64,000 nt of DNA from Candidatus Aenigmatarchaeota archaeon (GCA_043801595.1 JAZDLW010000022.1:5526-69525); one strand, 5' to 3'; shown: positions 46,296 through 62,222, numbered from the stretch's first letter. Made by a program: numbers and translations. The notes: generated by a model not told the origin, from the sequence alone.

Positions 46296-46341
46296 ATCAA
46301 GAAATAATACGGTTAAATAGATCACAGGAGAACTAGTAATT

Positions 46342-46964: not shown

Positions 46965-46987
46965 CTTTATTTGCAGTTCTGTAAGGC

Positions 46988-47395: not shown

Positions 47396-47423
47396 CACGA
47401 CAAGTTTTTTGGGTTTCGATTTT

Positions 47424-48119: not shown

Positions 48120-48151
48120 ATAATGTTTGACTAACGCTTAATATATTGTTT

Positions 48152-48547: not shown

Positions 48548-48588
48548 GCTATCAAAATACAATTTAGATAAAAGACATAATATAGTAT

Positions 48589-50862
48589 ATGGCTCTACGT
48601 TTCGAGTACAATCCGCAGGATAATTCCATACGGCTGAACACGCTCGGTACGCTTTACGGCTCAAGCCTCGAGGACTTTGACGCCATAATGGCGGCAGCTA
48701 TTGATAAAATAATCGAGGTAAAGAAAGTTTCGCGGATCGTGCTTGCGGAAACGCGTGAATACGAGTATGACTGGGAACAAACAAAGCTTCTTGTCGAAAT
48801 TGCCGAAGCACTGGATGAGATAGTAAAAGGAAGGAGATTGCTGACCATTTCTGCGCTGTCGCCGCCAAACTGCGACAAGCACACGCAAGAGCGAAGCCAC
48901 AACGTGCAGCGCATTGTAATAGATTTGATGCGGCGCGACCCGATCGGAGCGTATGCGGAGGTATTGAGGGAGATCAGACAGGCGAAAATAGACGCGAAGA
49001 AGAACCCATATCACATCCAGTGCTACGCGTATTATGTGAACAATTCGCTGCTTCCAATCCAGCGTGCGATGGAATCCACGACGCTGATACAACTCGTAAA
49101 GGATAATATCGCAGGCTATCATATCGGCGACAGGAGCCTTTACAGGGATATATTTCATCCAACAGTACGGCCGAATTTCATGCTAACAAGGTACATGTCC
49201 GCCACGCCCGCAAACGGCCAGGCGGTTGACAGGTACAAAATCGGCGACATAGATGTTGAGATATTCCGCGTTCCAACAAAATCGGAATTGGTCTATCACG
49301 TTATTCCGCCTGAATTTCAGTTAACAGAGGATAAGTACATGTTGCTGGATGCGGCCAGAAGATATATGGCAGCACACAGGCCCATTGAAACGGAGTTTTC
49401 CGATCCCGAGCGGGCGCGCGAGATATTCGCAAACATAGGGCGCGACATGATACGCGATTTGTCAACGAACATGGGAATATTTTTGAGCCCGGGCGAGACC
49501 GAGAATATAACCAAAATCCTGACGCGTTACACAGCAGGCTACGGAGTTTTGGAAATTTTACTGGCCGACGAAAAGATACAGGACATATATATCAATTCGC
49601 CTATCGGACAAAATCCCATATACATCACGCATTCCGATTACAACGAGTGCGCAACCAATCTTATTCCCACAAAGGATGACGCTGAATCGTGGGCAACGAG
49701 ATTCAGAATAGCGTCTGGACGGCCGTTAGACGAGGCGAACCCGGTCCTTGACACGGATATAATAGTTCCTGGCGGGCGCGCGAGAGTTGCTGCGATAACA
49801 AAGACTTTGTCGCCTGAAGGGCTGGCGTTCGCGTTCCGAAGACACAGGGATAAACCTTGGACGCTACCGTTGTTCATAAAAAGCGGGATGATAAATCCGC
49901 TGTTCGCGGGCGTGATGAGTTTTTTAGTCGATGGTTCAGCGTCTATGCTGATCGCAGGCGGTCGAGGATCCGGAAAGACGTCGCTGTTAAACGCCCTGAT
50001 GCTTGAGATCTCGCCGAACAAGCGAATACTTACTGTCGAGGATACGATCGAGCTTGCGGTCGATTACATGAGAAAGCTCGGGTACAACATCGAACGATTG
50101 AAGTCGCGTTCGGTGATTACGCACATCGAAACTGAGATGGCTGCGGATGAGGCGTTGCGAACTGCGCTGCGTCTCGGCGATTCCTCGTTAATAGTGGGCG
50201 AAGTGCGTTCGATCGAGGCGAAAGCGCTGTACGAGGCAATGCGAATAGGCGCTTTATCGAACATTGTCGCAGGCACAATACACGGCGAATCGCCGTACGG
50301 CGTTTACGACCGAGTTGTGAACGATCTCGGCGTTCCGCCGACAAGTTTCAAAGCGACGGATATAATCGTTATTGCGAAAATGCTCCATTCCGCCGACGGT
50401 TTGCACAGGTTCCGGCGCGTAACGGAATTGACAGAAGTGCGCAAGCACTGGAAAAACGACCCGTACGAAGAAAAGGGATTTGTAAACCTCATGGAATATT
50501 CGGCTGCTAACGACGCACTGAAGGCCACTGATGTTCTGTCTACGGGCGAGTCGGAAATAATAAACCGGATAGCTTCGTCAACGCGCGAGTGGGAAGGAAA
50601 ATGGGAGGATGTATGGGAAAACATACAGCTTCGCGCGAACATCAAAAAAGCAATGGTCGACTACTCCACCAAACTCAATCTTCCGGAAATAATCGAGGCG
50701 CCGTGGGTGATACAATCCAACGAATGTTTCCATATAATCAGTTCGAAAATCAAGGAAGATACGGGTTACATGGATCCGAAGGAAATATTCTCCAGGTGGG
50801 ATAAATGGTTTGGCACAAAAATAAAGGAGTATATTCCGAAATTGGCGACAAAGGCAAGATGA
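48589..50862 (+). CDS. Type IV pilus/archaellum-type secretion ATPase (GspE/VirB11/FlaI family) with an N-terminal extension of about 300 aa
   Basis: Walker A GGRGSGKTSLLNAL, Walker B region SLIVGEVRSIEA, His-box-like AGTIHGESP. 757 aa. Confidence 0.9.
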   Translation: MALRFEYNPQDNSIRLNTLGTLYGSSLEDFDAIMAAAIDKIIEVKKVSRIVLAETREYEYDWEQTKLLVEIAEALDEIVKGRRLLTISALSPPNCDKHTQERSHNVQRIVIDLMRRDPIGAYAEVLREIRQAKIDAKKNPYHIQCYAYYVNNSLLPIQRAMESTTLIQLVKDNIAGYHIGDRSLYRDIFHPTVRPNFMLTRYMSATPANGQAVDRYKIGDIDVEIFRVPTKSELVYHVIPPEFQLTEDKYMLLDAARRYMAAHRPIETEFSDPERAREIFANIGRDMIRDLSTNMGIFLSPGETENITKILTRYTAGYGVLEILLADEKIQDIYINSPIGQNPIYITHSDYNECATNLIPTKDDAESWATRFRIASGRPLDEANPVLDTDIIVPGGRARVAAITKTLSPEGLAFAFRRHRDKPWTLPLFIKSGMINPLFAGVMSFLVDGSASMLIAGGRGSGKTSLLNALMLEISPNKRILTVEDTIELAVDYMRKLGYNIERLKSRSVITHIETEMAADEALRTALRLGDSSLIVGEVRSIEAKALYEAMRIGALSNIVAGTIHGESPYGVYDRVVNDLGVPPTSFKATDIIVIAKMLHSADGLHRFRRVTELTEVRKHWKNDPYEEKGFVNLMEYSAANDALKATDVLSTGESEIINRIASSTREWEGKWEDVWENIQLRANIKKAMVDYSTKLNLPEIIEAPWVIQSNECFHIISSKIKEDTGYMDPKEIFSRWDKWFGTKIKEYIPKLATKAR

Positions 50863-52931
50863 GCGTAATGGGCGACAACTCTTTGGATAAGGACGAGCTG
50901 GCACGGATTGCGAAAGAATATGCGCCCAGAATTTTCGAGGATTATGAAAAGAGGCCCGAGGAATTCGTTTCACGTGACTATAAAGTATTCAAGAGCGAGG
51001 AAGCCAGCTCCAAAAAAAATCTTACGCCTTACGAATTACTTTGCAGCGTTGCTGAAAAAATAATCAAAGTGCAGCCTTCGAAAGGCTCTTCCGAAGACCT
51101 GACAAAATCAATAGAATTTTCCGGAATGCGGTGCACGCCGGCTGGCGTGTTGTCCGCAGCGTTCATATCAACTATACTCTTCATTTTTTTATCAGCAACC
51201 ATCACGCTTATCGGATTAGTGCCGATACCACTCGGACTGACCATGGTAATTTTCTCAATGTTCGCAGGTTTTTACATCGTGCATTACCCCAAAAAGCGCG
51301 CCAAAGACCTGCGTGTACGCGCATCCGAGGAGATCGTTCTGTCAATAGTCTACATGGTAATATCCATGCGGATTGTCCCGAACCTTGAGAATGCGATAAA
51401 GTTCGTTGCGACCAATCTGGCAGGACCGTTGGCAATGGACTTCCGCAAGCTTCTATGGGACATATACATGAGAAAAGAGGAGAACACGGACAAGGCGCTC
51501 GGCAAATACATCGATATGAGATGGAAGAACGAGAACGAGGAATTTTCCTCCGCATTAAACCTTATACGCAATTCCGTTGACCAGCCTGAACAAAAGCGTC
51601 TCGCCATGCTCGACGAGTCTGTTGACGTAATATTGAAAGGGACAAAGGAAAGGATGAATCACTATGCACACAACTTGCAAATGCCATTGCTGATAATACA
51701 CGCAATGGGAATAATGCTTCCGGTGATAGGGCTTGTTTTGTTCCCGGTTCTCGTGATGTTTTTATCAAATCTCATCCAGCCGTATATGCTATTCCTGGGG
51801 TACGACGTTTTCCTTTTCCTCGGGCTGTGGTGGTATACGTCGAACGTTTTGTCGACAAAGCCGCCGACACTCTCAAAGCCTGATGTTTCTAAGCATCCGG
51901 ATACGCCGAAGGCAGGATATTTCCGGCTAAGAATTTTCGGAAAAAAATTGAACGTAAGGACGGCTATACCTCCGTCAATACTTTTTGTAACACTGTTTGC
52001 CATAGGCGTTAACGGAATGACAAACAATGCGGCAACGTCGTTCATCAAGGTGATATATTCCGTTGTCATCATCGCGGCGTTTTCGCTTTCAATATCGTTT
52101 TACGCGTTTTTGGAATCTTTCCAGCGTACATACGTGCGGAAAAAAATAATGAGCGTCGAATCCGAGTTTGCGGAAGCTTTATTCCACCTTGGAAACCAAT
52201 TGTCTTCCGGAATTCCGATAGAGAATGCTATTGATAAAAACCAGGAGAAGATACGCGACCTGAGTATATCAGATTTCTTCGAGCGCATTGTGCAAAACAT
52301 CAAACGCATGGGCATGACGTTTGAGCAGGCGATTTTTGACAAGAACAACGGCGCTGTCTGGTATTACCCGTCGAGTCTGATCATATCGGTGATGAAAGTG
52401 ATTGTCGAGGCTGTGCGAAAGGGCGTTTACAATGCATCGCAGTCAATGCTTTCGATATCAAGATACCTCAAGGACGTGCATTCGATAGAAGAGGAGCTGC
52501 GTTCGGTATTGGGAGAAAGCACAACGAGCATGAAATTTTTAGGAGCGGTTCTTGCGCCGTTGGTAGCAGGCGTGACAGTAACGCTGGCATTGGTAATGCT
52601 CGACATAATCAAGGCGCTCGGAGAGAAGATTGCGATATTAACATCGCAGGGTGGGGCGACAAGCCTTCCGTTATTCTTAACAATCGGAATGGACAAAGGT
52701 GCGGTTACTGCGGAAATATTCCAGCTTGTTGTCGGGATATACATGCTTGAGGTGGCAGGATTGTTATCGTATTTCGTAAGCAGGATCGAAACAGGGGAAG
52801 ACAAGATCAACTTTTACAGTACGCTCGCGCTTAACATGTTCATATCGTTTGCCGTTTATTCCATAACAATCCTGATAGTTTATTCGACGTTCGGAGCGCA
52901 GATACAGAGCGCGATAATTGGAGGGGTTTGA
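50859..52931 (+). CDS. FlaJ/TadC/PilC-like polytopic membrane platform protein
   Basis: Start set at ATG 50859 (ATGA overlap with the ATPase stop). Alternating cytoplasmic helical domains and TM clusters. Position next to the ATPase supports the call. Confidence 0.65.
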   Translation: MSVMGDNSLDKDELARIAKEYAPRIFEDYEKRPEEFVSRDYKVFKSEEASSKKNLTPYELLCSVAEKIIKVQPSKGSSEDLTKSIEFSGMRCTPAGVLSAAFISTILFIFLSATITLIGLVPIPLGLTMVIFSMFAGFYIVHYPKKRAKDLRVRASEEIVLSIVYMVISMRIVPNLENAIKFVATNLAGPLAMDFRKLLWDIYMRKEENTDKALGKYIDMRWKNENEEFSSALNLIRNSVDQPEQKRLAMLDESVDVILKGTKERMNHYAHNLQMPLLIIHAMGIMLPVIGLVLFPVLVMFLSNLIQPYMLFLGYDVFLFLGLWWYTSNVLSTKPPTLSKPDVSKHPDTPKAGYFRLRIFGKKLNVRTAIPPSILFVTLFAIGVNGMTNNAATSFIKVIYSVVIIAAFSLSISFYAFLESFQRTYVRKKIMSVESEFAEALFHLGNQLSSGIPIENAIDKNQEKIRDLSISDFFERIVQNIKRMGMTFEQAIFDKNNGAVWYYPSSLIISVMKVIVEAVRKGVYNASQSMLSISRYLKDVHSIEEELRSVLGESTTSMKFLGAVLAPLVAGVTVTLALVMLDIIKALGEKIAILTSQGGATSLPLFLTIGMDKGAVTAEIFQLVVGIYMLEVAGLLSYFVSRIETGEDKINFYSTLALNMFISFAVYSITILIVYSTFGAQIQSAIIGGV

Positions 52932-53359
52932 TGCCGTCGGACAATGTTCGCTTCATGTTCTGGATCGCGATAGCTTTGATGTTCATGCTTGTGTTTTTCG
53001 GAATAGCAAACATACTGTTGCCCAGATTAATAATTTACAGTCAGCTGCCTGATACCGAGAGATCGCTTTATTCGGACAGCGGCGACGAGGCTGCGCTGCG
53101 CATTGTGAACGGCGTATGCAATCTGTGGAATGCCAAAGTCAGCTTCGATTCAGGCTTCGAGAGCGTTGTCGACTACAGAATAACATCCGGTTCAGCGGGA
53201 GAGACGCAGATCGGCGTTAAGTTCAGTTCAGTATGCCCGGAAATAGGCGACCACTGGAGATATGCGGGAGTTACGATGAGTGCGGAGAACACGTACGAGG
53301 TCAGAATAACACTGGACAGCGGTACGTCGAAGATAATCATTAATGTGAAAAAGAAGTAG
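52928..53359 (+). CDS. N-terminally anchored pilus-operon protein (143 aa)
   Basis: ATGA overlap with the upstream stop. Hydrophobic N-terminus FMFWIAIALMFMLVFFGIANILL. Confidence 0.55.
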   Translation: MMPSDNVRFMFWIAIALMFMLVFFGIANILLPRLIIYSQLPDTERSLYSDSGDEAALRIVNGVCNLWNAKVSFDSGFESVVDYRITSGSAGETQIGVKFSSVCPEIGDHWRYAGVTMSAENTYEVRITLDSGTSKIIINVKKK

Positions 53360-53366
53360 TGAATAT

Positions 53367-53591
53367 ATGATAACAGCGGAAAGCGCAAAGATAATGTTCA
53401 TTGCGATAATCGCAATAGTCGTGCTGACTGTAGTATTGGTTGTCGCGGTCGCACTGCAGGCTGCAACGCCGAGCGCAAACGTGTCAACGTGCGACGTGAT
53501 TGAGGGAAGCGGGGTTGTTGGAAAAGGTATCTGCTATCCGCTAAAGGCAGCGACATGGGTTTATTCAAAAACAATAGGCGTGATAAAATGA
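53367..53591 (+). CDS. Small N-terminally anchored pilus-operon protein (74 aa)
   Basis: IMFIAIIAIVVLTVVLVVAVAL helix followed by a short Cys-containing tail. Confidence 0.5.
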   Translation: MITAESAKIMFIAIIAIVVLTVVLVVAVALQAATPSANVSTCDVIEGSGVVGKGICYPLKAATWVYSKTIGVIK

Positions 53592-53788
53592 ATAAAAAAG
53601 GCATGACAACGGCAATGCTCGTAATACTGGGAGCGGTCGTAGTATCATTGATGGTTCTTGGCGTATTCCTGCTATTCTTTAACGAGGAATCGCAAACTGG
53701 CGGTTTTGCGGTTGTGTTTGCAAAAGGCATATGCGGTTTTCTAGCAAACGTAATAGGCGGTTTTGGCGCTGCGATATGCAACCTGTGA
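53588..53788 (+). CDS. Small pilin-like protein with class III signal-peptide-like N-terminus
   Basis: Start at ATG 53588 (ATGA overlap). MNKKG/MTTAMLVILGAVVVSLMVLGVFLL. Confidence 0.55.
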   Translation: MNKKGMTTAMLVILGAVVVSLMVLGVFLLFFNEESQTGGFAVVFAKGICGFLANVIGGFGAAICNL

Positions 53789-53828
53789 TGGTTTATAATC
53801 GTAAAAAATAATACTAAGAAGGATGTAT

Positions 53829-55040
53829 ATGCGAAAAGGAATGTCGGCTGGTGCGCTGGCGCTGATGGGTGGGATAGCGTTGCTGCTTCTCGTGTTGATT
53901 ATCAATGCTGCGCTGGATCCGACGTCCGGTTTTCGCGACTTCCTGAAAAAAGTGCCGTGGTTAAATAAAATCGTCGCGCCAGGCTCTTCTGACGGGGATA
54001 CGACGCCTGCGCCAATTCCCACAGACTCTTTCAAGGATTATCCGAGTTGGAGCTCGCTTTCAATATCTCCGACAGCACCGGCAATAAAATGGTCGTCTCC
54101 AACAGATTCCGCAGATGCATGCAAAGTTAAAATCGAATCATTGTTCGATCCTGTTAAAAATCCCAATTTCAACAGCTTCCGTGATATTTGTTTGTACGCG
54201 ACTTCAGATTTTCTATCGGAACCGTTCGATCTTGGCACAAACTGCAAAGTGGAGGCGAGCACACTCGTAAGCTACGTATCGTCTGTTTGCCGTTCGCAAG
54301 TCGGTGTGTTCGGCCTTGACCACAGAACATGGTTGCTTCCTACCAAAAATTGCGGGCAGACCCACAGGGACAAATTCAATGACATAAGATTCAACTGTGG
54401 GCTGGACAACGTGTGTTCGGGAGTTGTGCGATTATACTACAACAAGGATGACAAAGGCGTAGGGATCTGCGACGGAAATTCCGATATTCCGGCAATAAAA
54501 GACGCTCCTACAGCCAAAACGACGATCATAAAATGGCTCGATGACAGGATAAAGGATTCGGAGCAAAGCGGTGCGGGATCCGAAATGTGCGATTCTTTCA
54601 GCGATTGCACAATGGTGATAAATATTCCTGAGCCAGGGATACCGATAAACGAGCTTACGACAGCGATAATAGAGAATGTTAGGATTGACATGGGCGTTGA
54701 CAACGCATTTGCTGACGGTGCGAAATATCTGGAGTATGGGAGCGGAAAACCTTCCTGCGGTTCTTGCTGGCTACCATGGAATTTACCATGCTGCTTATCA
54801 GGAGGTTATGTCAGAGACGGCGTGGGACTAGATTTTTCTTTTTACGATCCTGCGCCTTACCAGTCAACAGGGCTGGCGGTCCCATGCGCAGTTCCAAAAT
54901 CGGAAAATCTCGGCTATAACTGCGGTTCGAACAATGTGTGCACGGGTGATATCAGGGTAACATACGGCTGCTCGTTTGCAGGTTCCTGCGGTAAAGATAA
55001 TAAACAGAGATTCATCGGCGTATGCGAAAAACCACCATAG
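53829..55040 (+). CDS. Cys-rich secreted pilin-like protein (about 403 aa)
   Basis: MRKG/MSAGALALMGGIALLLLVLII, then about 24 Cys. Internal repeat FNCGLDNVCSGVVRLYY / YNCGSNNVCTGDIRVTY. ATG 53823 is an alternative start. Confidence 0.65.
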   Translation: MRKGMSAGALALMGGIALLLLVLIINAALDPTSGFRDFLKKVPWLNKIVAPGSSDGDTTPAPIPTDSFKDYPSWSSLSISPTAPAIKWSSPTDSADACKVKIESLFDPVKNPNFNSFRDICLYATSDFLSEPFDLGTNCKVEASTLVSYVSSVCRSQVGVFGLDHRTWLLPTKNCGQTHRDKFNDIRFNCGLDNVCSGVVRLYYNKDDKGVGICDGNSDIPAIKDAPTAKTTIIKWLDDRIKDSEQSGAGSEMCDSFSDCTMVINIPEPGIPINELTTAIIENVRIDMGVDNAFADGAKYLEYGSGKPSCGSCWLPWNLPCCLSGGYVRDGVGLDFSFYDPAPYQSTGLAVPCAVPKSENLGYNCGSNNVCTGDIRVTYGCSFAGSCGKDNKQRFIGVCEKPP

Positions 55041-55071
55041 GATTGTAGTCATGGACCACTAAAAGATATTT

Positions 55072-55392
55072 ATGAAAGCATTAACAGAGGCGACATTGGC
55101 TGTGCTGATAGGTTTTATCATTGCGCTGGTTTTCGCGTTCCTGATGCTAGGCTGGGTCGAAAACAGCGGCGACAACATAGAACGCGAACGGAGCAAACTC
55201 GCGTCAACAGCAGGATGTCTGACAAAAGAAAACGCGTGCGGATTCGATGATAACAAAGCGTGCGTGTACACGCTTGACGGGCAAAATGCATGCGGCTGCC
55301 GCGCATGGTTAGGGATCGATAAAAACGGCGATTGCGCCGAAGGAAAGAAATGCAGTTCGGAAAGAGGGACGAATTATGGTTTCTGTGTTTAA
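55072..55392 (+). CDS. Cys-rich N-terminally anchored pilus-operon protein (106 aa)
   Basis: ATLAVLIGFIIALVFAFLML helix. 9 Cys in the C-terminal 60 aa. Confidence 0.55.
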   Translation: MKALTEATLAVLIGFIIALVFAFLMLGWVENSGDNIERERSKLASTAGCLTKENACGFDDNKACVYTLDGQNACGCRAWLGIDKNGDCAEGKKCSSERGTNYGFCV

Positions 55393-55567
55393 GGGTGAAA
55401 GCGATCAGGCGCTGATGATGGTTCTTGTAATTGTTGGTTTCGTTATCCTGCTCGGAATAGCAATAGCGCTGGTTGTTGTAATCGGAAGACCGAGCGCGAT
55501 GAACGCTGTTCCGCTGATCGGAAACTCGCTTTGCGATCTTTTGAAAGGATTAAGGGTGAAATGCTGA
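55376..55567 (+). CDS. Small pilin-like protein (63 aa)
   Basis: MVSVFKG/ESDQALMMVLVIVGFVILLGIAIALVVV. Overlaps the upstream gene by 17 nt. Confidence 0.45.
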   Translation: MVSVFKGESDQALMMVLVIVGFVILLGIAIALVVVIGRPSAMNAVPLIGNSLCDLLKGLRVKC

Positions 55568-55900
55568 ATGCCGGAACAGGGAATAGATCTTATGATGGTC
55601 GTCGTAGGTACGATCGTTTTGCTGGCGGTAATAATAGGATTGGTTTTTTTAGGCGTTATCGGGCCGATTGACAGCACGAAAAAAGGAAGGAATATGGAGT
55701 TCGCTTGCACGCAATACCAAGGCGAGATAGGGTGTGCGAGAAGCGAATGCACGACCGCGTACGATTCTACTGCGTGCAGAATTTTGCTTGCAAATACAAA
55801 ATACGGCGCAAATTCAATAAGCGTCTGGGAAACCTGCAATTCGATAGGAATAAACGATCCCAAAAACTGCCATATAAGATGCTGCGGAAAGACGGGATGA
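55568..55900 (+). CDS. Cys-rich pilin-like protein (110 aa)
   Basis: MPEQG/IDLMMVVVGTIVLLAVIIGLVFLG. 8 Cys, ending CHIRCCGKTG. Confidence 0.55.
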   Translation: MPEQGIDLMMVVVGTIVLLAVIIGLVFLGVIGPIDSTKKGRNMEFACTQYQGEIGCARSECTTAYDSTACRILLANTKYGANSISVWETCNSIGINDPKNCHIRCCGKTG

Positions 55901-55907
55901 TTTTATT

Positions 55908-56252
55908 ATGCGCAAACAAAATAAGTTCATGAAAAAAGGAATGCTGGCAATAGATATGATTATCGTGCTTGCGATAGGCGTAATAATCCTCGCGGTTGTT
56001 GTCGGACTTGTAATATTCGGCGGGCAGCAGCCGGGAAGCGATATTGCGAAGCAGGCGTTCGTGCGATCGTGCTGCCAGTTGAACATGCCGACCACATGTA
56101 CGGCTGACTCTTCAACAATTAACTGTATAATTCCCAAAAGTCTTGAATCGTCGTTCGGTTGTACATCTTCACCGTGCTCTAGGAAGCTGGATTTTGTGGC
56201 AAGTGCGATAGGTATAACATCCAATGTAAAAGCGTTCTGCGGTTGCGGCTGA
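55908..56252 (+). CDS. Cys-rich pilin-like protein, paralog of 61857-62222
   Basis: MKKG/MLAIDMIIVLAIGVIILAVVVGLVIFG (alternative start 55929). DIAKQAFVRSCCQLN parallels QQARANFNNACQILV. Ends FCGCG. Confidence 0.6.
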   Translation: MRKQNKFMKKGMLAIDMIIVLAIGVIILAVVVGLVIFGGQQPGSDIAKQAFVRSCCQLNMPTTCTADSSTINCIIPKSLESSFGCTSSPCSRKLDFVASAIGITSNVKAFCGCG

Positions 56253-56287
56253 AAAACATATTATTAAACAAAATACAATTCTAGTTG

Positions 56288-58963
56288 ATGGACAGCAGAA
56301 AAGGACTGGGCCAAGATACGATATTTCTAATGGTCGGAATCCTGATACTGCTTATTACTGCGTTGGTTATCTACGCGCTAATAGGCGGGCCTTACTGCGA
56401 TGACCTTGCCAAAAAAACCGCTAGCAACATAAAAGTCGCTGTCGATACTGTTGCAACAACAGGAACGTACACGAAAGACAGCCCGTACACGACGTATGCG
56501 ATGTTATGCCAGAATAATGTGAAAAAACCCTTGACGCTTAACCCGGCAGATTATCGTACTTTTTCAGCGCCCGAATACATGATCTACTGGGAGCATTTTC
56601 CAGAGTCTCCGAAAAATATAGCTGAGGGGTTGTACAAATTTGACGAAAGCTATCCGTTCAGCAAAAATATGGCTATGATTCTTGGGACCAATGTCGCGTT
56701 ATCATTTGTAAGCGGAACGCTTTCCTCCTTTGCAAAAACCGCCAAAGGAGCGACTTTGATCAAAGACATATCCAGCAAGATATCGAAATCCACGGCAGGC
56801 AAGGTGGTGGGGCTGTTTTTCAAGCCGTTTGTGATAGGCGGAAAAATCGCAACACTTCCGCTGAAATTAATAGATTATGCTGCAACAATGGCGGCCAAAG
56901 GGATCGTCAAACCCATCGGGTTCATAGTAAAGGTTGCAATTACAAAAACCGGCGTAGGAGAAACCGCAATCGGAAAATGGATAGTTGCCAAGACAGCGCC
57001 AAACATATTCGGCCGTGTGGTGGGGCTGGGCTTCCTCGAATCAATGGGCGAAAGCGCGCTTATACAAATCACAGAGGCTTCGGAAGGAAAAACTGTCAGG
57101 ATGATCCGGATCGTGGATCCGGCTGACTCTTCGAAAATGATCGAAAAAGCCATTGTGCCGGAGATCACAAGGGTTGAGTTCAAGACCACCATTGACAGTT
57201 TAGCCAGCAGCGGCGCAGAGGAGGACAGGATAATAGCGGAAAGATTCAGGGAATTTTTCGCGTACGACAACGACGAAATTGCAAGCGCGGAAAACTTTGA
57301 AAAATCGTTCCAAGAACTGGTGAAAGACTCCGAGAAATTCGACTCAGGTTTTTACGATCTGGTCGGCGGCGCGATGAAAGCGGCCAGAGAATCTTTTGAC
57401 AACACAGCCAAAGACATGGCAAGCCGATACGGTTTATATGCGCACAGACCGATAACGGTTTTCTTTGACCAGAGCGGCTTAACGAGGTTCTCCAATAAAG
57501 TAAATGCTATCGGTACTTTCAGAAAGATGAAGTTTTTCGGTGAAGACGGAAAACTTGTCGATGAAGTGTCAACGAGCATTAAAAAGTCGTTCTCCGATCT
57601 GAAGATAACGACAAAAATGGAAACCGAGGATGATTTTGCCGCAGCTACGGAAAAGTTTTTCGTAAAGGACGGCAAAATGATAGTGGCAAGCGCGGAAACG
57701 GATACGGCTATGCTGTCCTTCCTTGAGTCGGAAATAAAATACGGTGTGGATGGATCCGAAACCGGAATAACAAAAGGTGCGTATTCGAACCTGATGAATG
57801 GCGCAGCCAGCGAAGATGATATTGGGAGCATAGCATCGAGTTTCCATACAAATTATATATCTGAACTTAGAAGCGTCGGGATGTCTGAGGATGCTATAAA
57901 TGCCGCGGAAGGCAAACTGTCAACGTCACAGTATTCCAAGACACTTGTGAGGGATATGGGGAGAGAGTTGAAGTCGGCAAAAGAATTTGCAGTTGACAAT
58001 GACGAAGCGCTTGAAATTGCAATGTTGTCCGCATCTTGGAAACGCGAGCCGGAACAGCTTGCGCTGATGGCGCAGGACGAGTATGAAACAATATTGTGGG
58101 AAGGCAAGGGTACAATCAAATTCATAAAAACGAACATAGCGGCTTTTATGGTCGGTACGGAGACTGAGAATGAATTAAAATATGCGTACCTGAAAGCGCC
58201 GAATGCGGGATGCGAGTCGAACACGGTCTGCTTAAACCAAAAAGGCGTGGAGCAGAAAAAAGTCGATGTTAAAGAATCGGACATAAAAAATTACGAGACC
58301 GCGTATGTTGTTTCGAAAGATGTTATGGTAAGGCTGGAACGGCCCAAAGACGGTCACATCATATCACCTATAGGCGCCGGCATAGGTGCATTCAAATTAA
58401 CGGTAGATCCGCGTTTCCATCTCGTTTCGCCGTGTCTTGCGGAGTTAAAGTTTTATGAGAGCGGCACTGACGCTGAAATGGGCAAGCCGTTGATAATGTC
58501 CGAAGTTGACAGATGCGACCTTTCTTCTAGAAATTCCAATTATTGCTATTTTGACGAAGACAAATTCAACGAAATGGCTGTGGGATTTTATAGCAGTCTG
58601 GCATGTTCTGTCGTAGCCGATATAGGAAAGCTTGCGCTTTTCGGTTTCGTGCTTCAGCCAGCTTGTTCGCTTGCAGAGGTAAAGACCGAGTACGATACAA
58701 CATGGCCGTTCCAGCCTTTCGAGCCGCTGAAAAGAGAGAATATGAATATATTTTCTTGCAACGTTGAAAAAAATCCCAAGGCTGCTGCAAAGCTTGCCGT
58801 AACAGCATGTTGTAATATTGCCAAGTGCGACAGCGGTTATGTATGTTCCGATGTGGAGTATAGCGACAAAAACAAGGTGATCTGCGGAAAAGACAAATGC
58901 ACACTCGCAGACCTTGCGAAGACTGCGGAAGAAGAATATAAAACAACGTGCGGGTGCTCATGA
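56288..58963 (+). CDS. Large (about 891 aa) pilin-like-signal protein, candidate adhesin or tip protein
   Basis: MDSRKG/LGQDTIFLMVGILILLITALVIYA. Long low-Cys central region and a Cys-rich C-terminal 250 aa ending TTCGCS. Confidence 0.65.
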   Translation: MDSRKGLGQDTIFLMVGILILLITALVIYALIGGPYCDDLAKKTASNIKVAVDTVATTGTYTKDSPYTTYAMLCQNNVKKPLTLNPADYRTFSAPEYMIYWEHFPESPKNIAEGLYKFDESYPFSKNMAMILGTNVALSFVSGTLSSFAKTAKGATLIKDISSKISKSTAGKVVGLFFKPFVIGGKIATLPLKLIDYAATMAAKGIVKPIGFIVKVAITKTGVGETAIGKWIVAKTAPNIFGRVVGLGFLESMGESALIQITEASEGKTVRMIRIVDPADSSKMIEKAIVPEITRVEFKTTIDSLASSGAEEDRIIAERFREFFAYDNDEIASAENFEKSFQELVKDSEKFDSGFYDLVGGAMKAARESFDNTAKDMASRYGLYAHRPITVFFDQSGLTRFSNKVNAIGTFRKMKFFGEDGKLVDEVSTSIKKSFSDLKITTKMETEDDFAAATEKFFVKDGKMIVASAETDTAMLSFLESEIKYGVDGSETGITKGAYSNLMNGAASEDDIGSIASSFHTNYISELRSVGMSEDAINAAEGKLSTSQYSKTLVRDMGRELKSAKEFAVDNDEALEIAMLSASWKREPEQLALMAQDEYETILWEGKGTIKFIKTNIAAFMVGTETENELKYAYLKAPNAGCESNTVCLNQKGVEQKKVDVKESDIKNYETAYVVSKDVMVRLERPKDGHIISPIGAGIGAFKLTVDPRFHLVSPCLAELKFYESGTDAEMGKPLIMSEVDRCDLSSRNSNYCYFDEDKFNEMAVGFYSSLACSVVADIGKLALFGFVLQPACSLAEVKTEYDTTWPFQPFEPLKRENMNIFSCNVEKNPKAAAKLAVTACCNIAKCDSGYVCSDVEYSDKNKVICGKDKCTLADLAKTAEEEYKTTCGCS

Positions 58964-59457
58964 AAGGAATAGTTATAGTGCGGGATTTCCTGATATTTAT
59001 CGCAGAGCTCGCTGTACTGTTGTTCAGCCTCGTTTTCATAACACAGGCCGGCAGCCAGATGGGCGATTTCGTTTTCAATTTCGATTCGCGTGTAGCATCG
59101 GAAACTATATTCGGCTTCGAAGCTGCGGCCGATATGTCAGGCGGAAATTTTGAAGCTGGTTTCACGATGCCTGCAAACCCGTACAAACTTTCCATAGGAA
59201 CTGACAACGGAAATTATTTTGTGCTGATTGATTCGTCGCGCGAAACATTCCACGCGCCTGGTGGCGTTACGATAAAATTCCAGAAGCCGAGAAAATTGTT
59301 CCTTATACACACGATCGGCAATAATCTTGCGGTGCTTGACGGCGAGATTGCTGCGCCTGCAGGCGGAAAGATGAGCGAAAGCCAGAACTGGCGTGTGGAC
59401 GTGAAGCGTGTTAACAACGATATCAGCGTAAGCGCGATTCCGCTGGGGGCGAAGTAA
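58960..59457 (+). CDS. Pilin-like-signal protein (165 aa)
   Basis: ATGA overlap. MKG/IVIVRDFLIFIAELAVLLFSLVF. Confidence 0.55.
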   Translation: MKGIVIVRDFLIFIAELAVLLFSLVFITQAGSQMGDFVFNFDSRVASETIFGFEAAADMSGGNFEAGFTMPANPYKLSIGTDNGNYFVLIDSSRETFHAPGGVTIKFQKPRKLFLIHTIGNNLAVLDGEIAAPAGGKMSESQNWRVDVKRVNNDISVSAIPLGAK

Positions 59458-59459
59458 AC

Positions 59460-59900
59460 ATGTCGTCATTTTTATCCGAGAATTTTCTAAAGATAGTTTC
59501 GCTGGCGCTGACCATATTCGCGATACTCGGATCAATCGTCCAATTCCAGTCGTTTGCGATACAACTGCACGGAAAACAGACGGACAGGCTCTATATAATG
59601 TTCGGGCAATATCTTGCAGGCGCGCCGTTCATTACAGCGAGCGATCCGGAATACAGAAAAGGCGTGCTTGATGAAGTTAAATTGAACGCGTTAACAAATG
59701 ATTCGTTTAAAACAAAATTCAGCTTTGCCCAGATAGACAAATACCTCGTGGAGATAACGACGGATTCTTCTGGCTGGATATTCGGTGACGATTCGTTGTT
59801 AGGTGCGAATTACAGACTGTGGACTTATCCGGTTGCCGTAAAAACAACGGATGCGGTTGTTCCGGGAAAGATGTTAGTTTATGTTCCAAAAGAGGCGTGA
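59460..59900 (+). CDS. N-terminally anchored pilus-operon protein (146 aa)
   Basis: LKIVSLALTIFAILGSIV helix. Starts 2 nt after the upstream stop. Confidence 0.5.
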   Translation: MSSFLSENFLKIVSLALTIFAILGSIVQFQSFAIQLHGKQTDRLYIMFGQYLAGAPFITASDPEYRKGVLDEVKLNALTNDSFKTKFSFAQIDKYLVEITTDSSGWIFGDDSLLGANYRLWTYPVAVKTTDAVVPGKMLVYVPKEA

Positions 59901-59901
59901 T

Positions 59902-60459
59902 ATGGTTAGAAAATTAAAAGGCGACATTTGGTTTGTTTCGGATTTTCTATTCCTCGTATCGCTGTTCTCAGTCTCGATGATAATGTTGTTTTCGATGAGC
60001 ATTGCAAAGCTCATTGTGGGTAACCTTATCGATTATACGGTTCACGCGCAATTCCTCGAATTCTCCCTAAACAACGAGAACGCGTTGCTGTCGGGCTCCG
60101 AAATTAAAATAAATCCGTCGGATCCGCAGCTGAAACGAATTATGTCGTTCGCGGCGTTCCAATGGAACGGAGATCCGATATGCGGTTCGCCGCCTGTTGC
60201 TCCCTGCTGGGACGGTAATGTTTTCATCGACGGCGTGTTTTACAATGTTAATGACATGACAAAAGGAATATTCGACAAGCTTGTGGGCGGGCCGTATGTT
60301 CTCGAATTAAGAAAGAATTTCAATGGCGTTGACAAAAGATTTATCATCGCATCGCGCGACGCAGATAATATAAACGCGGATCCGGAAGTTGCGGAACTGG
60401 AATTCGCTGTTCCGTACTCGTCGCCGGCGTTTTACAGGTTATACTCGGTGATAAAATGA
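59902..60459 (+). CDS. Pilin-like-signal protein (about 185 aa)
   Basis: Start moved to ATG 59902, just after the upstream TGA. MVRKLKG/DIWFVSDFLFLVSLFSVSMIMLF. Confidence 0.5.
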   Translation: MVRKLKGDIWFVSDFLFLVSLFSVSMIMLFSMSIAKLIVGNLIDYTVHAQFLEFSLNNENALLSGSEIKINPSDPQLKRIMSFAAFQWNGDPICGSPPVAPCWDGNVFIDGVFYNVNDMTKGIFDKLVGGPYVLELRKNFNGVDKRFIIASRDADNINADPEVAELEFAVPYSSPAFYRLYSVIK

Positions 60460-61787
60460 AAGGCGGAATAATGACGTTTTCCGGCAGCCTGATAATGATA
60501 TTGATAGGCGTCGGAATAATCTGGTGGTTCCGTTCTGTTTCGGTGTCGGAGGCGTTCATAACATCCGAGCGGCACAAGGAGAGCTTTTCAACACTTAACT
60601 ATGCCGAATTCGCGAAGAAAACTCTTGAGGAAGCGGCGTATATGTATTCGTATATAGGCGCTGCGAAAATGGGAATAACAGGAGGAACGAACGTTGCGCA
60701 GAAAAAGGATGAGATCGCGATATGGAAAACAGCGCCGGATGAGATTACGATAAAGAACGAGCTTAAGAAAAATATCAGCGGCGAAATCGACAATTCATTA
60801 CCAGAAACGTCGATACCCGGAAAGTTCCTTGTAACTTCGTACTTAACAACGAAAATCGATGTGGCTGCGGACAAATCCGATTTATCGGCATCGGATAAAT
60901 TTTCGGTAAAAGGAGAGAAAAATATAGTTGTAAAGAAAAATCTGGAGAGTTCCGGAATATACGTGACCGCTAAACTTAAGGGAATAATCGATACGGAGAT
61001 AAAATTAAAGTATTTCGCGCTTTACGATGCTGCGCGCCAGTTCATAAGCAGCGGACAAGCCGAGGCGAGGATAAACAATGCATTCGCTGCGATTAATACG
61101 ATTGGCAGCGCAACTCGTTCCTCGTCCAAGTGCGGAACGTTCGATCCGTGCAATTACGGAAATCCGTACGACAGTTCTTGTCCGTCATCTGCGGCTGCGA
61201 CAGAACCAGCAGATGCCGAGGCTTTGGCTAACACAGGTTACGCAACTTTGGCAGGAACAACGTTTTCCGAAACAATATCAGGATCGCCATTCTCGTCTTT
61301 CCTGGCAAAATTTGAAAAATACGGGACTCTGACACCGAAAGCCGGATATAACGATTTGGACAAGTCTGTCAGTACGGGTTCGTGTTCGTTCACATGCAGT
61401 TATTTAAAGTATAATGCCTGCCAAACAACAAGAGAAGTGTGCGTGCCGGTGGACCCTCCCACAGATCCCCCGTCGCCTGATGTTTGCACAGACGTATGTG
61501 TCGGAGGAGATGACACACTTTACAGCAGTTGTTCCGCTGGCACTAAAACGAGCACGATAACGTTCACGTTCGTAGCGGACATGTATGCAAAATACTCTTC
61601 GGAGGATCCTAACAGCCAAGTGCCGTCGCAAAACCTCAAAAGCATAGCGGGAAAAACGCTTCCTTACGATACTCTGAAGTTTAACTTTCTCACACATAGC
61701 TGTTCTGTGATTAAAGGCGGAAGCGTTTCAACGGAACTGAAAAGCGATGTTACAGACTGTTCAATAACAACGAGTCATGTTATATAA
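60456..61787 (+). CDS. Pilin-like-signal protein with Cys/Pro-rich C-terminal region (443 aa)
   Basis: ATGA overlap. MKGG/IMTFSGSLIMILIGVGIIWWF. C-terminal CVPVDPPTDPPSPDVCTDVCVGG. Confidence 0.6.
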   Translation: MKGGIMTFSGSLIMILIGVGIIWWFRSVSVSEAFITSERHKESFSTLNYAEFAKKTLEEAAYMYSYIGAAKMGITGGTNVAQKKDEIAIWKTAPDEITIKNELKKNISGEIDNSLPETSIPGKFLVTSYLTTKIDVAADKSDLSASDKFSVKGEKNIVVKKNLESSGIYVTAKLKGIIDTEIKLKYFALYDAARQFISSGQAEARINNAFAAINTIGSATRSSSKCGTFDPCNYGNPYDSSCPSSAAATEPADAEALANTGYATLAGTTFSETISGSPFSSFLAKFEKYGTLTPKAGYNDLDKSVSTGSCSFTCSYLKYNACQTTREVCVPVDPPTDPPSPDVCTDVCVGGDDTLYSSCSAGTKTSTITFTFVADMYAKYSSEDPNSQVPSQNLKSIAGKTLPYDTLKFNFLTHSCSVIKGGSVSTELKSDVTDCSITTSHVI

Positions 61788-61856
61788 AAACAAGCGAAAC
61801 CTTTGCCATGTTAAGATATTTAAGGGTCACAAACAAACATTATAATTAAGATAAAA

Positions 61857-62222
61857 ATGAAACGAAAGGGTATCGCACTTCCAATCGACATGCTTGTTAT
61901 TCTTGCGATCGCTGTCATAATCCTGATAGCGGTTGTTGCAGTGTTCATGGGCGTATGGACGCCTTTCGCTGGCAACCAGCAGGCAAGAGCGAACTTTAAT
62001 AATGCCTGCCAGATTTTAGTCAACACAGGATGCGCCGATTTGTCTACGAGCCAGTGGGTTAGTCTGTGCAAGGCTGCTAACGGAATCGTTTTAAGTAAGG
62101 CTACATGTGACAATGACGTGGACAAGCTTGCTGTAAAGGTAGGATGCGGCTGCCCGAATGTTGCGCCGTTAGGAGCAACGACAACAACTGCGACACCAAC
62201 AACGACAACAACAACTATCTAA
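61857..62222 (+). CDS. Candidate major type IV pilin (class III signal peptide, Thr-rich tail)
   Basis: MKRKG/IALPIDMLVILAIAVIILIAVVAVFMG, 6 Cys including GCGC, C-terminal TTTTATPTTTTTTI. Separated from the operon by its own 69-nt AT-rich spacer. Confidence 0.7.
   Translation: MKRKGIALPIDMLVILAIAVIILIAVVAVFMGVWTPFAGNQQARANFNNACQILVNTGCADLSTSQWVSLCKAANGIVLSKATCDNDVDKLAVKVGCGCPNVAPLGATTTTATPTTTTTTI

Follow-up and report, generated by a model that had tools for sequence, protein, structure and literature searches.

A type IV pilus-like gene cluster with cysteine-rich, class III-like subunits in an Aenigmatarchaeota archaeon

What kind of surface apparatus, if any, is encoded where a secretion-type ATPase gene and a membrane platform gene are followed by a long run of genes whose products resemble no named family? 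DPANN archaea are believed to live on the surface of host cells, and the molecules that make this contact are largely unknown. We followed up such a locus at positions 48589-62222 of a 64,000-nucleotide stretch of DNA (hereafter the window, meaning the whole stretch that was analysed), which an initial annotation had described as type IV pilus-like and had guessed to come from a small-genome archaeon; the source is indeed an Aenigmatarchaeota MAG, of the DPANN lineage. Our analysis confirmed that the gene cluster at 48589-62222, from an Aenigmatarchaeota (DPANN) archaeon, is genuinely type IV pilus-like. The description holds: a secretion-superfamily ATPase, an adjoining FlaJ/TadC-like platform protein, an excess of prepilin-like N-termini and tight operon packing are found together. 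Taking the minimal TFF definition from bioRxiv 10.64898/2026.04.22.720090 and PMC4858521, we consider it likely that the locus encodes the machinery of a pilus-like type IV filament.

Gene order, motor and flanking genes

The locus comprises 16 co-directional open reading frames on the + strand, namely an ATPase (g1), a platform protein (g2) and 14 single-helix proteins (g3-g16), which bears out the earlier count of 14 co-directional genes after the first two. Its genes are tightly operon-packed, with four ATGA overlaps (g1/g2, g4/g5, g11/g12 and g14/g15); a fifth ATGA junction had been claimed, but one overlap, at g2/g3, is TTGA. The sole sizeable intergenic gap, 69 bp and AT-rich, lies 5' of g16. 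Window g16 is identical to NCBI V1836_03700, and g11 to V1836_03675.

The ATPase g1 (48589-50862, + strand; 757 aa) has a FlaI/TadA/GspE-like core between an N-terminal region (aa 1 to ~285) and a C-terminal extension. It matches Pfam T2SSE (E = 1e-18, aa 415-601; family cut-off 24.9 bits) as well as the NCBIfam FlaI and TadA-family models, with the FlaI model aligned over aa 288-693, and in PDB it aligns with afGspE, CpaF and FlaI over aa ~285-618. Walker A (GGRGSGKT), the Asp box (EDTIE), Walker B (LIVGEVR) and the His box (GTIH) are all intact, by which g1 is a VirB11/GspE/FlaI-superfamily ATPase predicted to be catalytically competent. An extra N-terminal domain of about 300 aa had been proposed, and residues 1-285 do lack a match among solved structures in PDB; the net extension comes to ~170-190 aa, however, because FlaI, afGspE and full-length CpaF themselves have ~115-125 residues before the aligned core (the shorter CpaF entries 8rkd and 8rjf have ~35). 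The C-terminus of g1 is longer as well. This conserved motor ATPase makes a good marker gene: its homologues number over 5,700, at about 60% identity, and relatives occur in 325 species representatives among GTDB genomes. The N-domain family counts only 290 representative clusters, whose named distant members are either DPANN (Anstonellales) or vaguely labelled MAGs, and as far as these sequence labels go the N-domain is DPANN-restricted.

The platform protein g2 (50859-52931, + strand; 690 aa) is polytopic and FlaJ/TadC-like, with at least nine hydrophobic segments. Its own match to Pfam T2SSF is sub-threshold (E = 0.018, 15.4 bits vs. a cut-off of 25.2), 22 of 40 g2 orthologues have T2SSF as their best-ranking family (best E = 6e-5), and a profile search against PDB gave no match. 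Both the topology, with at least nine transmembrane segments, and the ATGA overlap with the ATPase gene agree with membership of the T2SSF family, towards which we lean.

The system also reaches upstream beyond 48589, taking in two conserved coiled-coil genes on the minus strand (47424-48541). The nearer, u1 (48152-48541; 129 aa), is divergent from the ATPase and has a conserved start, MAVFDKK (the mechanical ORF continues to 48664); its paralogue u2 (47424-48119; 231 aa) is a cytoplasmic protein in which a Q/P/E-rich linker joins a small N-terminal domain to a C-terminal coiled coil. Between u1 and g1 lies a divergent, AT-rich (74%) spacer of 47 bp (48542-48588) with TATA-like elements legible in the sequence, presumably a bidirectional archaeal promoter region. 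Apart from generic coiled-coil matches, u2 gave a sub-threshold match to Pfam DUF7310 (E = 9e-5, 23 bits vs. a cut-off of 40), a family also matched, below threshold, by 5 of 44 u1 orthologues; in PDB and Pfam, u1 itself drew nothing beyond generic coiled-coil matches. Directly upstream are five paralogous polytopic membrane proteins, m1-m5 (43202-46926, + strand), which have relatives of the same family near the ATPase in 56 of 80 loci and which have no Pfam family and no A24-like GxGD motif; they are possibly associated with the pilus-like system, their membership being uncertain.

Some of these features would also fit a reduced archaellum, that is, a motility organelle. Besides the alignment of g1 with the FlaI model and FlaI structures, both u1 and u2 give faint FlaC_arch matches (E = 0.04-0.08, below the 27.8-bit cut-off and among many generic coiled-coil matches), and FlaG, FlaI and FlaJ with adjacent archaellum homologues have been described in most Aenigmarchaeota MAGs (PMC8407114), in loci that we infer to be of the same kind as the present one. 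Against the NCBIfam FlaI equivalog, however, g1 scores 131.8 bits vs. a cut-off of 550, and the TadA-family model, afGspE and CpaF all outscore FlaI; by these scores g1 is no FlaI orthologue. Archaea that bear an archaellum always retain seven components, among them FlaH, FlaF, FlaG and archaellins (Makarova et al. 2016, PMC4858521), whereas neither the 14 downstream proteins nor u1/u2 matched archaellin, FlaF/G or FlaH (KaiC-like), and the reported absence of archaellin-like genes stands, since g3-g16 had no archaellin or Fla family match in Pfam or NCBIfam at E <= 0.1. Nor was FlaC/D/E or FlaX recognised in the locus beyond the faint FlaC_arch matches of u1 and u2. We regard the archaellum as largely refuted, with scarcely any probability left to it.

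Class III-like N-termini, even cysteine counts and individual subunits

Every one of the 14 proteins g3-g16 has one N-terminal hydrophobic helix. We scored their N-termini with a strict, home-made, FlaFind-like class III rule ([KR][GA] followed by the helix, with a short leader before), using the 52 other genes of the window as controls. Ten of the 14 locus proteins passed, compared with 2 of 52 controls, on a rule by which a signal-anchor with a short basic leader and a transmembrane helix is indistinguishable from a class III signal; the residue at -1 is G in nine of the ten and A in g7, and the four that failed are g3, g4, g9 and g13. The initial estimate of at least nine prepilin-pattern proteins is thus upheld in number, although one of its cited examples, MPEQG/ (g9), has no basic residue. 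Leaders in the locus are mostly of 3-6 residues, basic and ending in G, and of the 267 single-helix proteins in related loci, 158 satisfy the same rule, with leaders mostly of 3-5 residues. Neither an acidic nor a Tyr residue is conserved at +5/+6 among the class III-like proteins, which also lack the Flp G/XXXXEY motif. No window subunit reaches the curated Pilin_N threshold in Pfam, and among 148 class III-like proteins of related loci a single one matches Pilin_N / DUF1628 (4.6e-6); that the subunits belong to no nameable family was likewise borne out by the Pfam and NCBIfam searches.

Cysteine makes up 90 of the 3024 residues of the locus proteins (3.0%) vs. 0.9% in controls (Fisher p = 2e-16). 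The impression of unusual Cys-richness is true relative to this genome and to most archaeal pilins. The counts are even in all 12 Cys-containing locus proteins (g12 and g13 have none), compared with 19 even vs. 18 odd among controls, and across all related loci they are even in 181, odd in 44 and zero in 42. Even counts point to stabilisation of the subunits by extracellular disulfides, as predicted from sequence. A precedent for Cys-richness exists among archaeal T4P components, in Thermoproteales subclade 4E (PMC4858521).

The individual subunit genes, all on the + strand, begin with g3 (52928-53359; 143 aa, 2 Cys, genus-restricted) and g4 (53367-53591; 74 aa, 2 Cys), each with an N-terminal helix and without the K/R-G motif. 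They are followed by g5 (53588-53788; 66 aa, 2 Cys), which is class III-like (MNKKG/MTTAML...), and, downstream of g6, by four further small proteins: g7 (55072-55392; 106 aa, 8 Cys), class III-like as MKA/LTEATL...; g8 (55376-55567; 63 aa, 2 Cys), class III-like as MVSVFKG/ESDQAL...; g9 (55568-55900; 110 aa, 8 Cys), which starts MPEQG/IDLMMVV...; and g10 (55929-56252; 107 aa, 8 Cys), which starts MKKG/MLAIDM..., ends ...FCGCG and belongs to a 'CGC' small-pilin family.

Three products are much larger. The first, g6 (53829-55040; 403 aa, 20 Cys), is class III-like (MRKG/MSAGAL...) and a candidate large Cys-rich surface protein, or adhesin, with no family match in Pfam or NCBIfam and two relatives only, both at genus level. 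The third, g15 (60456-61787; 443 aa, 12 Cys; MKG/GIMTFSGSL...), is an orphan large Cys-rich surface protein. Between them lies g11 (56285-58963; 892 aa, 18 Cys), large and class III-like (MDSRKG/LGQDTIFL...), which has only 15 homologues in 5.8e9 proteins and whose family was found in 9 loci by iterative search; its AF2 model is confident only for aa 231-620 and poor elsewhere, its fold has no match in PDB, and we consider it a candidate tip protein or adhesin. It heads a recurring block, g11-g14, whose gene-size pattern repeats in related loci (L016, L044, L049, L054, L060 and L023). Within this block, g12 (58960-59457; 165 aa, MKG/IVIVRDFL...) and g14 (59902-60459; 185 aa, 2 Cys, MVRKLKG/DIWFVSDFL...) are minor-pilin-like, and g13 (59460-59900; 146 aa), with an N-terminal helix and without the K/R-G motif, is the most widely conserved subunit gene, its mature domain occurring in 19-20 loci.

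The best major-pilin candidate, and the probable major subunit, is g16 (61857-62222; 121 aa, 6 Cys), which starts MKRKG/IALPIDMLVIL... and ends in a Thr-rich tail. Its family has 64 members, every one labelled hypothetical, in which the N-terminal helix is conserved at 91% vs. 57% for the head, and five head cysteines are invariant in 63 of 63 family members; a congener has tandem g16 paralogues. The AF2 model is moderately confident (pLDDT 78) and shows the N-terminal helix followed by an all-alpha head, with no structural match in PDB. Its match to Pfam Pilin_N is sub-threshold (E = 0.073, 14.4 bits vs. a cut-off of 25.2), as are all those of the 14 of 63 family members that match this model. 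If the prediction is right, the all-alpha, triple-disulfide head of g16 would be a type IV filament subunit fold without a match among solved structures; being small and defined, the protein is suited to direct tests.

Conservation across Aenigmatarchaeota

Phylum-wide, the conserved elements are the ATPase g1 and the u1/u2 coiled-coil genes; outside the genus, the pilin-like genes can no longer be recognised. By blastp, u1 is present in 69 of 80 related loci and u2 adjoins the ATPase in 66, iterative search finds the pair in 69, and both genes occur also in loci without platform and subunits. A g2 homologue adjoins the ATPase in 47 of the 80. Dozens of species combine ATPase and platform with a series of Cys-rich class III-like proteins. 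This architecture is shared by ~35 of 80 Aenigmatarchaeota loci, also where BLAST detects no homology between the subunits, and two small Cys-rich subunit families recur in related loci; about 40% of related genomes have an ATPase that does not adjoin platform or subunits. Between congeners, identity is 88% for the ATPase, 76% for the platform, 52-78% for neighbouring genes and 39-62% for the subunits.

As initially reported, the 64-kb window holds no prepilin peptidase: Pfam and GxGD-motif searches found no A24 class III signal peptidase (PibD/FlaK/EppA), the only protease there being a rhomboid (28811-29443), and none lies within 10 kb of the ATPase in the 80 related loci. Archaellin, FlaH and A24 peptidase were all absent from the locus, from the window's polytopic proteins and from the best 25 of 59 Pfam families of the other window genes. 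Two nanoarchaea are reported to encode the ATPase and yet to lack a peptidase of this class (Makarova et al. 2016, PMC4858521).

The lack of a peptidase nearby and the uncoupling of the ATPase from subunit-like genes in that 40% of genomes, along with the four proteins without a K/R-G motif and the unmatched curated pilin models, are what one would expect if the 14 downstream genes encoded ordinary signal-anchored or Sec-secreted surface proteins (envelope- or S-layer-associated) that are simply co-located with an ATPase that exports otherwise. We judge this very improbable, given the ATGA/TTGA translational coupling that runs from the ATPase through the subunits and the recurrence of the association in dozens of species despite complete turnover of subunit sequence. 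The very short leaders ending in G and the near-invariant helix of g16 are also typical of polymerising prepilins, not of simple anchors.

In related loci, proteins with like N-termini carry Peptidase_M23, Peptidase_M15_4, weak SLT, ConA-like lectin (Laminin_G_3) and PLD-like domains, and in three of them (L051, L064 and L068) the M23 protein is the last gene of the cluster. Such proteins would suit a bindosome- or pseudopilus-like platform for display or secretion, with a short stalk at most, that presents adhesins, lectins and lytic enzymes at the surface or contact site; g6, g11 and g15 would then be cargo or effectors and the small Cys-rich proteins the stalk. The ratio of 14 subunit-like to 2 motor genes and the size of several products (403, 443 and 892 aa) agree with this picture, as does a 2026 TFF survey that proposes wide 'functionalisation' with class III-signal binding proteins (bioRxiv 10.64898/2026.04.22.720090). 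However, g6, g11, g15 and the other window subunits have no recognisable enzyme, lectin or substrate-binding domain in Pfam or NCBIfam, the conservation pattern of g16 is typical of a polymerising major subunit, and the enzyme-bearing proteins could equally be ordinary co-located signal-anchored ectoenzymes. We therefore weigh a display platform as an unlikely alternative to the filament. Quite unlikely, too, is a host-attack or attachment organelle in which the Aenigmatarchaeota motor would polymerise disulfide-stapled all-alpha mini-pilins, their fold unlike that of any solved pilus, and display fast-evolving effectors by the class III route, with g6, g11 and g15 as the window's equivalents. 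If it were so, the murein hydrolases (M23, M15, SLT), phospholipase D-like enzyme and lectins of some lineages would imply bacterial, not archaeal, hosts or prey. Independently of this reading, the relatives with murein hydrolases in sister lineages suggest, as a testable idea, that bacteria may be the targets of some Aenigmatarchaeota. The literature searched yielded no pairing of an Aenigmatarchaeota member with a host.

Proposed assembly and comparison with known systems

For the preferred filament reading, we propose that the subunits enter the membrane and have their short leaders cut by a class III signal peptidase that would be encoded elsewhere, after which the ATPase-platform motor would pull them from the membrane and polymerise them through their conserved hydrophobic helices. 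As major subunit, g16 would contribute a small, predicted all-alpha head with probably three disulfides and a possibly glycosylated Thr-rich tail. By analogy with bacterial minor pilins and PilY1, g11 with g12-g14 would likely act as a priming or tip complex, its large component being adhesin-like; the small Cys-rich g5 and g7-g10 and the large g6 and g15 may be minor subunits or displayed adhesins, and the cytoplasmic u1 and u2 probably scaffold or regulate the motor. Fast divergence of the heads against a constant motor would fit surface or host recognition by an episymbiont, and hypervariable disulfide-rich surface subunits could set host specificity. The locus is in this respect a concrete, phylum-wide candidate for a DPANN host-contact apparatus.

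DPANN islands of FlaI, TadC and unrecognisable pilins have already been described (Makarova, Wolf & Koonin 2019, PMC6393860, Fig. 2A), with a FlaI-type ATPase and TadC-type platform followed by many signal-peptide proteins that are unlike known pilins and were predicted to be diverse pilins. Because this concept is already published, the advance here lies in detail and testability rather than in principle. To that generic description we add a u1/u2 pair conserved phylum-wide, a DPANN-restricted ATPase N-domain, a systematic enrichment in Cys with even counts, two families of small Cys-rich subunits that recur, and the predicted all-alpha head of the candidate major pilin g16.

Among characterised archaeal systems, Thermoproteales subclade 4E (PMC4858521; the Pyrobaculum pilus in bioRxiv 10.64898/2026.04.22.720090) is similarly multi-component, with large adhesin-like and small minor-pilin-like proteins. 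Its members are hyperthermophilic Thermoproteota in which disulfides are explained by thermostability, whereas the present organism has its relatives among groundwater MAGs; the subunits of the two show no detectable relationship in sequence, and the ATPase N-domain and accessory genes differ. The euryarchaeal/halobacterial subclade 4F (PMC4858521) likewise has an ATPase with an extra, variable N-terminal domain and an associated cytoplasmic coiled-coil protein (arCOG07564), but the N-domain family found here is DPANN-labelled or unlabelled, with no identified haloarchaeal members, the DUF7310 matches of u1/u2 are sub-threshold, and no PilA-family (arCOG02981-type) pilin was recognised in the locus. 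The Methanococcus Epd pilus, or archaeal System 1 (bioRxiv 10.64898/2026.04.22.720090), which is reported in some DPANN, comprises 11 genes in a single unit, which encode many pilins and minor pilins as well as an adhesin-like protein; unlike the present locus, with its one 690-aa platform gene and no peptidase, it has two platform genes and an in-cluster peptidase (EpdA/EppA-type).

The bacterial type IVa minor-pilin/PilY1 tip complex may resemble g11-g14 in its working, as ~4 small prepilin-like proteins and one large non-pilin-sized protein are encoded together, although g11 has no sequence or fold similarity to PilY1 or to anything in PDB. The g1 ATPase core scores well against CpaF/TadA of bacterial Tad/Flp pili; unlike T4aP and Tad/Flp systems, the locus is archaeal and has no conserved acidic +5 residue, no Flp G/XXXXEY motif and no secretin. 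Identity as a bacterial Tad/Flp pilus was rejected on the missing Flp motif and on a g1 score of 140 bits vs. a cut-off of 373 for TIGR03819, the TadA/CpaF equivalog. A disulfide-delimited head region, as predicted here, is a classic feature of bacterial pilins.

Motor and coiled-coil partners

Window segment 48589-62222 is filled by 16 ORFs, all on the plus strand, encoding an ATPase (g1), a platform protein (g2) and 14 downstream subunit-like proteins (g3-g16), and we conclude that an Aenigmatarchaeota archaeon here carries a genuine type IV filament locus with clear limits. The type IV pilus-like character proposed in the initial annotation is borne out by the family and motifs of the ATPase, the T2SSF-type orthologues of the platform and an excess of class III-like proteins (short basic leader ending in G or A, then a hydrophobic helix) among the subunits. 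With refined starts, four of the five ATGA junctions originally counted stand (g1/g2, g4/g5, g11/g12 and g14/g15), while g2/g3 is a TTGA overlap; the remaining junctions are mostly gaps of 0-7 nt, with a 17-nt overlap at g7/g8 and gaps of 28-69 nt confined to the positions before g6, g7, g10, g11 and g16.

The ATPase (757 aa) matches Pfam T2SSE (E = 1e-18), carries intact Walker A, Asp box, Walker B and His box motifs, and aligns with the PDB structures of afGspE, CpaF and FlaI over aa ~285-618. Of the NCBIfam models, FlaI aligns with aa 288-693 and a TadA-family model with aa 303-576, each scoring far below its equivalog cut-off. The platform (690 aa) has at least nine hydrophobic segments; its own T2SSF match is sub-threshold, and T2SSF is the family matched by 22 of 40 orthologues. 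We rejected an archaellum: archaellins, FlaF/G and FlaH are all lacking at the locus, in keeping with the earlier remark that no archaellin-like genes are present, and the ATPase does not qualify as a FlaI equivalog.

More than 5,700 homologues align with g1 over its full length at ~60% identity, with source names of Aenigmarchaeota/Aenigmatarchaeota and a few labelled Nanoarchaeota. Scanning one genome per GTDB species, we found relatives in 325 species; nearly all of the best 80 are Aenigmatarchaeota MAGs, and groundwater is the source of several. Residues 1-290 form a narrow family (290 representative clusters among 1.84 billion) that is always N-terminal, in host proteins of ~720-790 aa or 1260-1780 aa. 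Among the ten most distant full-length members, informative names were confined to Candidatus Anstonellales (DPANN); the others had no name or vague labels ("Euryarchaeota archaeon HGW", "bacterium"), which we suspect to be mis-assignments. Intein domains (PF14528, PF14890) occur in some full-length g1 homologues (proteins P0017 and P0069), and some N-domain representatives, at 1264-1783 aa, have about double the usual length, as would fit intein insertion.

Divergent from the ATPase on the minus strand, and outside the span initially annotated, lie two coiled-coil genes, u1 (48152-48541) and u2 (47424-48119), which an iterative profile search identified as mutual paralogues. Their products have no predicted transmembrane segments and are therefore presumably cytoplasmic. 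Generic coiled coils are the sole matches of the pair beyond a sub-threshold match of u2 to DUF7310. Subclade 4F has been described as combining an ATPase that bears an additional N-terminal domain with a linked coiled-coil protein, and as occurring in nanoarchaea "without identifiable pilins" (PMC4858521). The extra domain and the coiled-coil partners led us to consider a 4F link, which the N-domain relatives, all DPANN-type, did not confirm; the locus may be the DPANN counterpart of subclade 4F.

Several elements of this picture have precedents. DPANN islands combining FlaI, TadC and unrecognisable signal-peptide proteins have been shown and read as encoding divergent pilins (PMC6393860), Cys-rich type IV pilus components have been described in the Thermoproteales 4E group (PMC4858521), and variable ATPase N-domains are a theme of a 2026 survey of type IV filaments (bioRxiv 10.64898/2026.04.22.720090). 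A genomic study of Aenigmarchaeota described FlaG/FlaI/FlaJ, with archaellum homologues beside them, in most MAGs (PMC8407114); these are presumably loci of the same kind as ours. Neither the type of machinery nor the notion of divergent pilins in DPANN is thus new; the new details are the u1/u2 pair, the DPANN-only ATPase domain, the systematically disulfide-rich subunits and a predicted all-alpha mini-pilin, and they make the locus experimentally approachable.

Class III-like signals and cysteine in the subunits

Each of the 14 downstream proteins has one N-terminal hydrophobic helix. Under a strict class III rule (short leader, then [KR][GA], then helix), 10 of the 14 pass, in line with the earlier estimate of at least nine such proteins. 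Among 52 control genes taken from elsewhere in the window 2 do so, and one of these two itself looks genuinely class III. Cysteine makes up 3.0% of subunit residues (90/3024) vs. 0.9% in controls (Fisher p = 2e-16), upholding the description of the subunits as unusually Cys-rich, and cysteine counts are even in all 12 Cys-containing subunits, compared with 19 even and 18 odd in controls. Taken together, these figures establish that the class III-like and cysteine excesses are real and well beyond chance. In related loci, the 267 proteins with a single N-terminal helix have even cysteine counts in 181 cases, odd in 44 and zero in 42, and clustering of their mature domains gives 129 groups, of which 91 are singletons. 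D residues between +2 and +7 in several window proteins suggested an acidic +5 residue equivalent to the bacterial E5; we rejected this, since the position is not conserved among the 158 proteins compared. Some 25 kb from the locus, window 23771-24328 (minus strand) encodes a protein of 185 aa that begins in textbook class III-like fashion (MTKG/VTNVISIIMLTLGAVVL), has a C-terminal TM anchor and matches no family; the same peptidase or machine could act on it as well.

As initially annotated, no prepilin peptidase was found in the window: its unannotated polytopic proteins gave no A24 family match in Pfam and no GxGD motif, and its only membrane protease is a rhomboid (28811-29443). Across the 80 related ATPase neighbourhoods, 32 otherwise unassigned polytopic proteins included M50, M48 and M56 peptidases and glycosyltransferases, with no A24 member. 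In most archaea with such ATPases the peptidase is present and usually unlinked, and two nanoarchaea are without it (PMC4858521).

Two small Cys-rich families recur across related loci. The first, which includes g10 and g16 and which we call the CGC family, starts MKG-ISLP..., has the framework C-x7-C ... C ... C-x3-CGC and usually terminates at or near CGC. Its profile retrieved only 64 proteins among 5.8 billion, all labelled hypothetical and with no Pfam domain in any. Most of these sources are without a name, and the named ones are Aenigmatarchaeota save for one partial protein labelled Heimdallarchaeaceae (P0182); this protein and a g11 homologue labelled "Candidatus Uhrbacteria bacterium" (P0197, on a 2.1-kb contig) are probably mis-binned Aenigmatarchaeota contigs. 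The second family (MKG-VAIPYVIA..., C-x6-7-[YF]C-x2-W), also class III-like, is absent from the window and often lies between ATPase and platform (L069, L070, L077, L079, L081).

Within the first family, g16 (100% identical to NCBI V1836_03700, on a 90.8-kb contig of an Aenigmatarchaeota MAG) is a candidate major pilin. Across 33 orthologues, pairwise identity is 91% in the N-terminal segment (aa 5-37, KG-[IV][AS]LPIDMLVILAIAVIILIAVVAVFMGVW-PF) and 57% in the head; five cysteines are invariant in 63/63 family members, and a congener carries two tandem copies. Its AT-rich upstream gap of 69 bp, the one sizeable gap of this kind in the locus, would be compatible with strong expression independent of the other genes. 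An AlphaFold2 model built from the ortholog alignment (pLDDT 78) comprises a helix (10-30), a G/P break, an all-alpha head (helices 38-56, 64-74 and 87-96) and a disordered, Thr-rich tail, and a Foldseek search against the PDB gave no match (best E = 4.4). The heads of known archaeal pilins and archaellins are beta-rich and those of bacterial pilins alpha-beta, so that the g16 head, if the model is right, would be a distinct type. The tail (TTTTATPTTTTTTI, window 62180-62222) may be an O-glycosylation site.

Preceding g16, the block g11-g14 begins with a class III-like protein of 892 aa and 18 cysteines (g11, 100% identical to V1836_03675 on the same MAG contig as the g16 match), which has just 15 homologues. 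Its model is confident only at aa 231-620, with the conserved N- and C-terminal parts poorly modelled, and returned no significant fold match in the PDB. Blocks of one 730-900-aa protein and, after it, three or four 125-190-aa proteins also occur in the distant loci L016, L023, L044, L049, L054 and L060. From the likeness to bacterial minor pilins with PilY1, an analogy in block make-up and not a demonstrated homology, and to archaeal subsystems containing adhesins (Makarova 2016, PMC4858521; Sivabalasarma & Albers 2026), we infer that g11-g14 may form a priming or tip module.

Conservation and hydrolase or lectin domains across related loci

When the window genes were compared by blastp with every ORF of the 80 loci, homologues were found in all 80 for the ATPase, 69 for u1, 66 for u2 and 47 for the platform, compared with 3-6 (congeners) for each of g3-g13; iterative profile searches widened just two of the families, g13 to 19 loci and g11 to 9. 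The architecture of minus-strand u2 and u1 followed by plus-strand ATPase, platform and a class III-like Cys-rich run nevertheless recurs in ~35 of the 80 loci, where the subunit sequences are wholly different. Most remaining loci have the ATPase and u1/u2 followed by GT2/PMT-type (PMT_2) glycosyltransferases, and here the platform must be encoded elsewhere. Because platform and subunits do not follow the ATPase and u1/u2 in ~40% of species (e.g., L002/L021 on CP070801.1, and ~30 other loci), motor and subunit genes are frequently unlinked. Variations in gene content include very large Cys-rich ORFs between ATPase and platform (1950 and 2090 aa, in L010 and L066) and, in other loci, 836-1300-aa proteins directly behind the platform.

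Identity to congeners is 88% for the ATPase, 76% for the platform, 52-78% for neighbouring genes and 39-62% for the subunits, by which measure the subunits are the fastest-diverging genes of the neighbourhood, but not dramatically so. We accordingly rejected a description as extremely fast-evolving pilins: they diverge only moderately faster than their neighbours, and the main contrast is with an unusually conserved ATPase.

Among 148 class III-like proteins of related loci, one matched Pilin_N, and strong matches were obtained to Peptidase_M23 (3), PLD-like (2), Laminin_G_3 (2) and Peptidase_M15_4 (1) domains, with one moderate match to Glucosaminidase (E = 3.9e-06) and one weak match to SLT. 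The M23 proteins are each the last gene of their cluster (L051:20443-21507, L064:20521-21636, L068:13478-14593), the M15 and weak SLT proteins lie in L053:19395-21825, and the ConA-like lectins (Laminin_G_3) lie behind the platform (L026:9128-10018, L038:11022-11933); in each of these placed proteins a short basic leader precedes a helix. For archaeal peptidoglycan hydrolases, a 2025 survey listed Sec and Tat signals only (PMC12352652). The presence of murein hydrolases in pilus-like operons of archaea hints that bacteria may be the targets. One reading, which we consider improbable, is that our locus builds a host-attack organelle whose displayed effectors take the class III route. The window's own proteins contain no hydrolase or lectin domains of this type, and jackhmmer related g6, g14 and g15 neither to the hydrolase/lectin proteins nor to other families of the related loci. 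The hydrolase and lectin proteins bear on the possible role of the machine in the phylum, not demonstrably on the window.

Upstream membrane proteins and surroundings

Directly upstream of the locus, on the plus strand (43202-46926), are five paralogous polytopic membrane proteins (m1-m5) sharing the motif [FY]..[FIL]LLP[WF]LL.F.I.[YF]G[IV]L, with no Pfam family and no A24-like motifs. Since 56 of the 80 Aenigmatarchaeota loci have relatives of these proteins close to the ATPase (m4 and m5 having homologues in 42 each), m1-m5 may be part of the filament system. An IS605 OrfB/TnpB-like gene (Cas12f1-like_TNB) precedes the m-family genes in the 88%-identity congener L001 (1549-2775), with no counterpart in the corresponding part of the window.

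The other window genes are ordinary archaeal housekeeping genes (including TFIIB, FtsZ, aTrm56, CCA-adding enzyme, ThrRS editing domain), and three GT4-type glycosyltransferase genes also occur among them (271-4868; one individually identified, 271-1398). Rfam and tRNA scans of the window found no RNA genes, and bacterial sigma-70 and intrinsic-terminator scans gave no more than shuffle expectation and were thus uninformative for this archaeon. The gap between m5 and u2 (46967-47398) contains two overlapping ORFs on opposite strands, of 143 aa (minus) and 135 aa (plus), and the equivalent place in L001 is occupied by a plus-strand gene of 154 aa.
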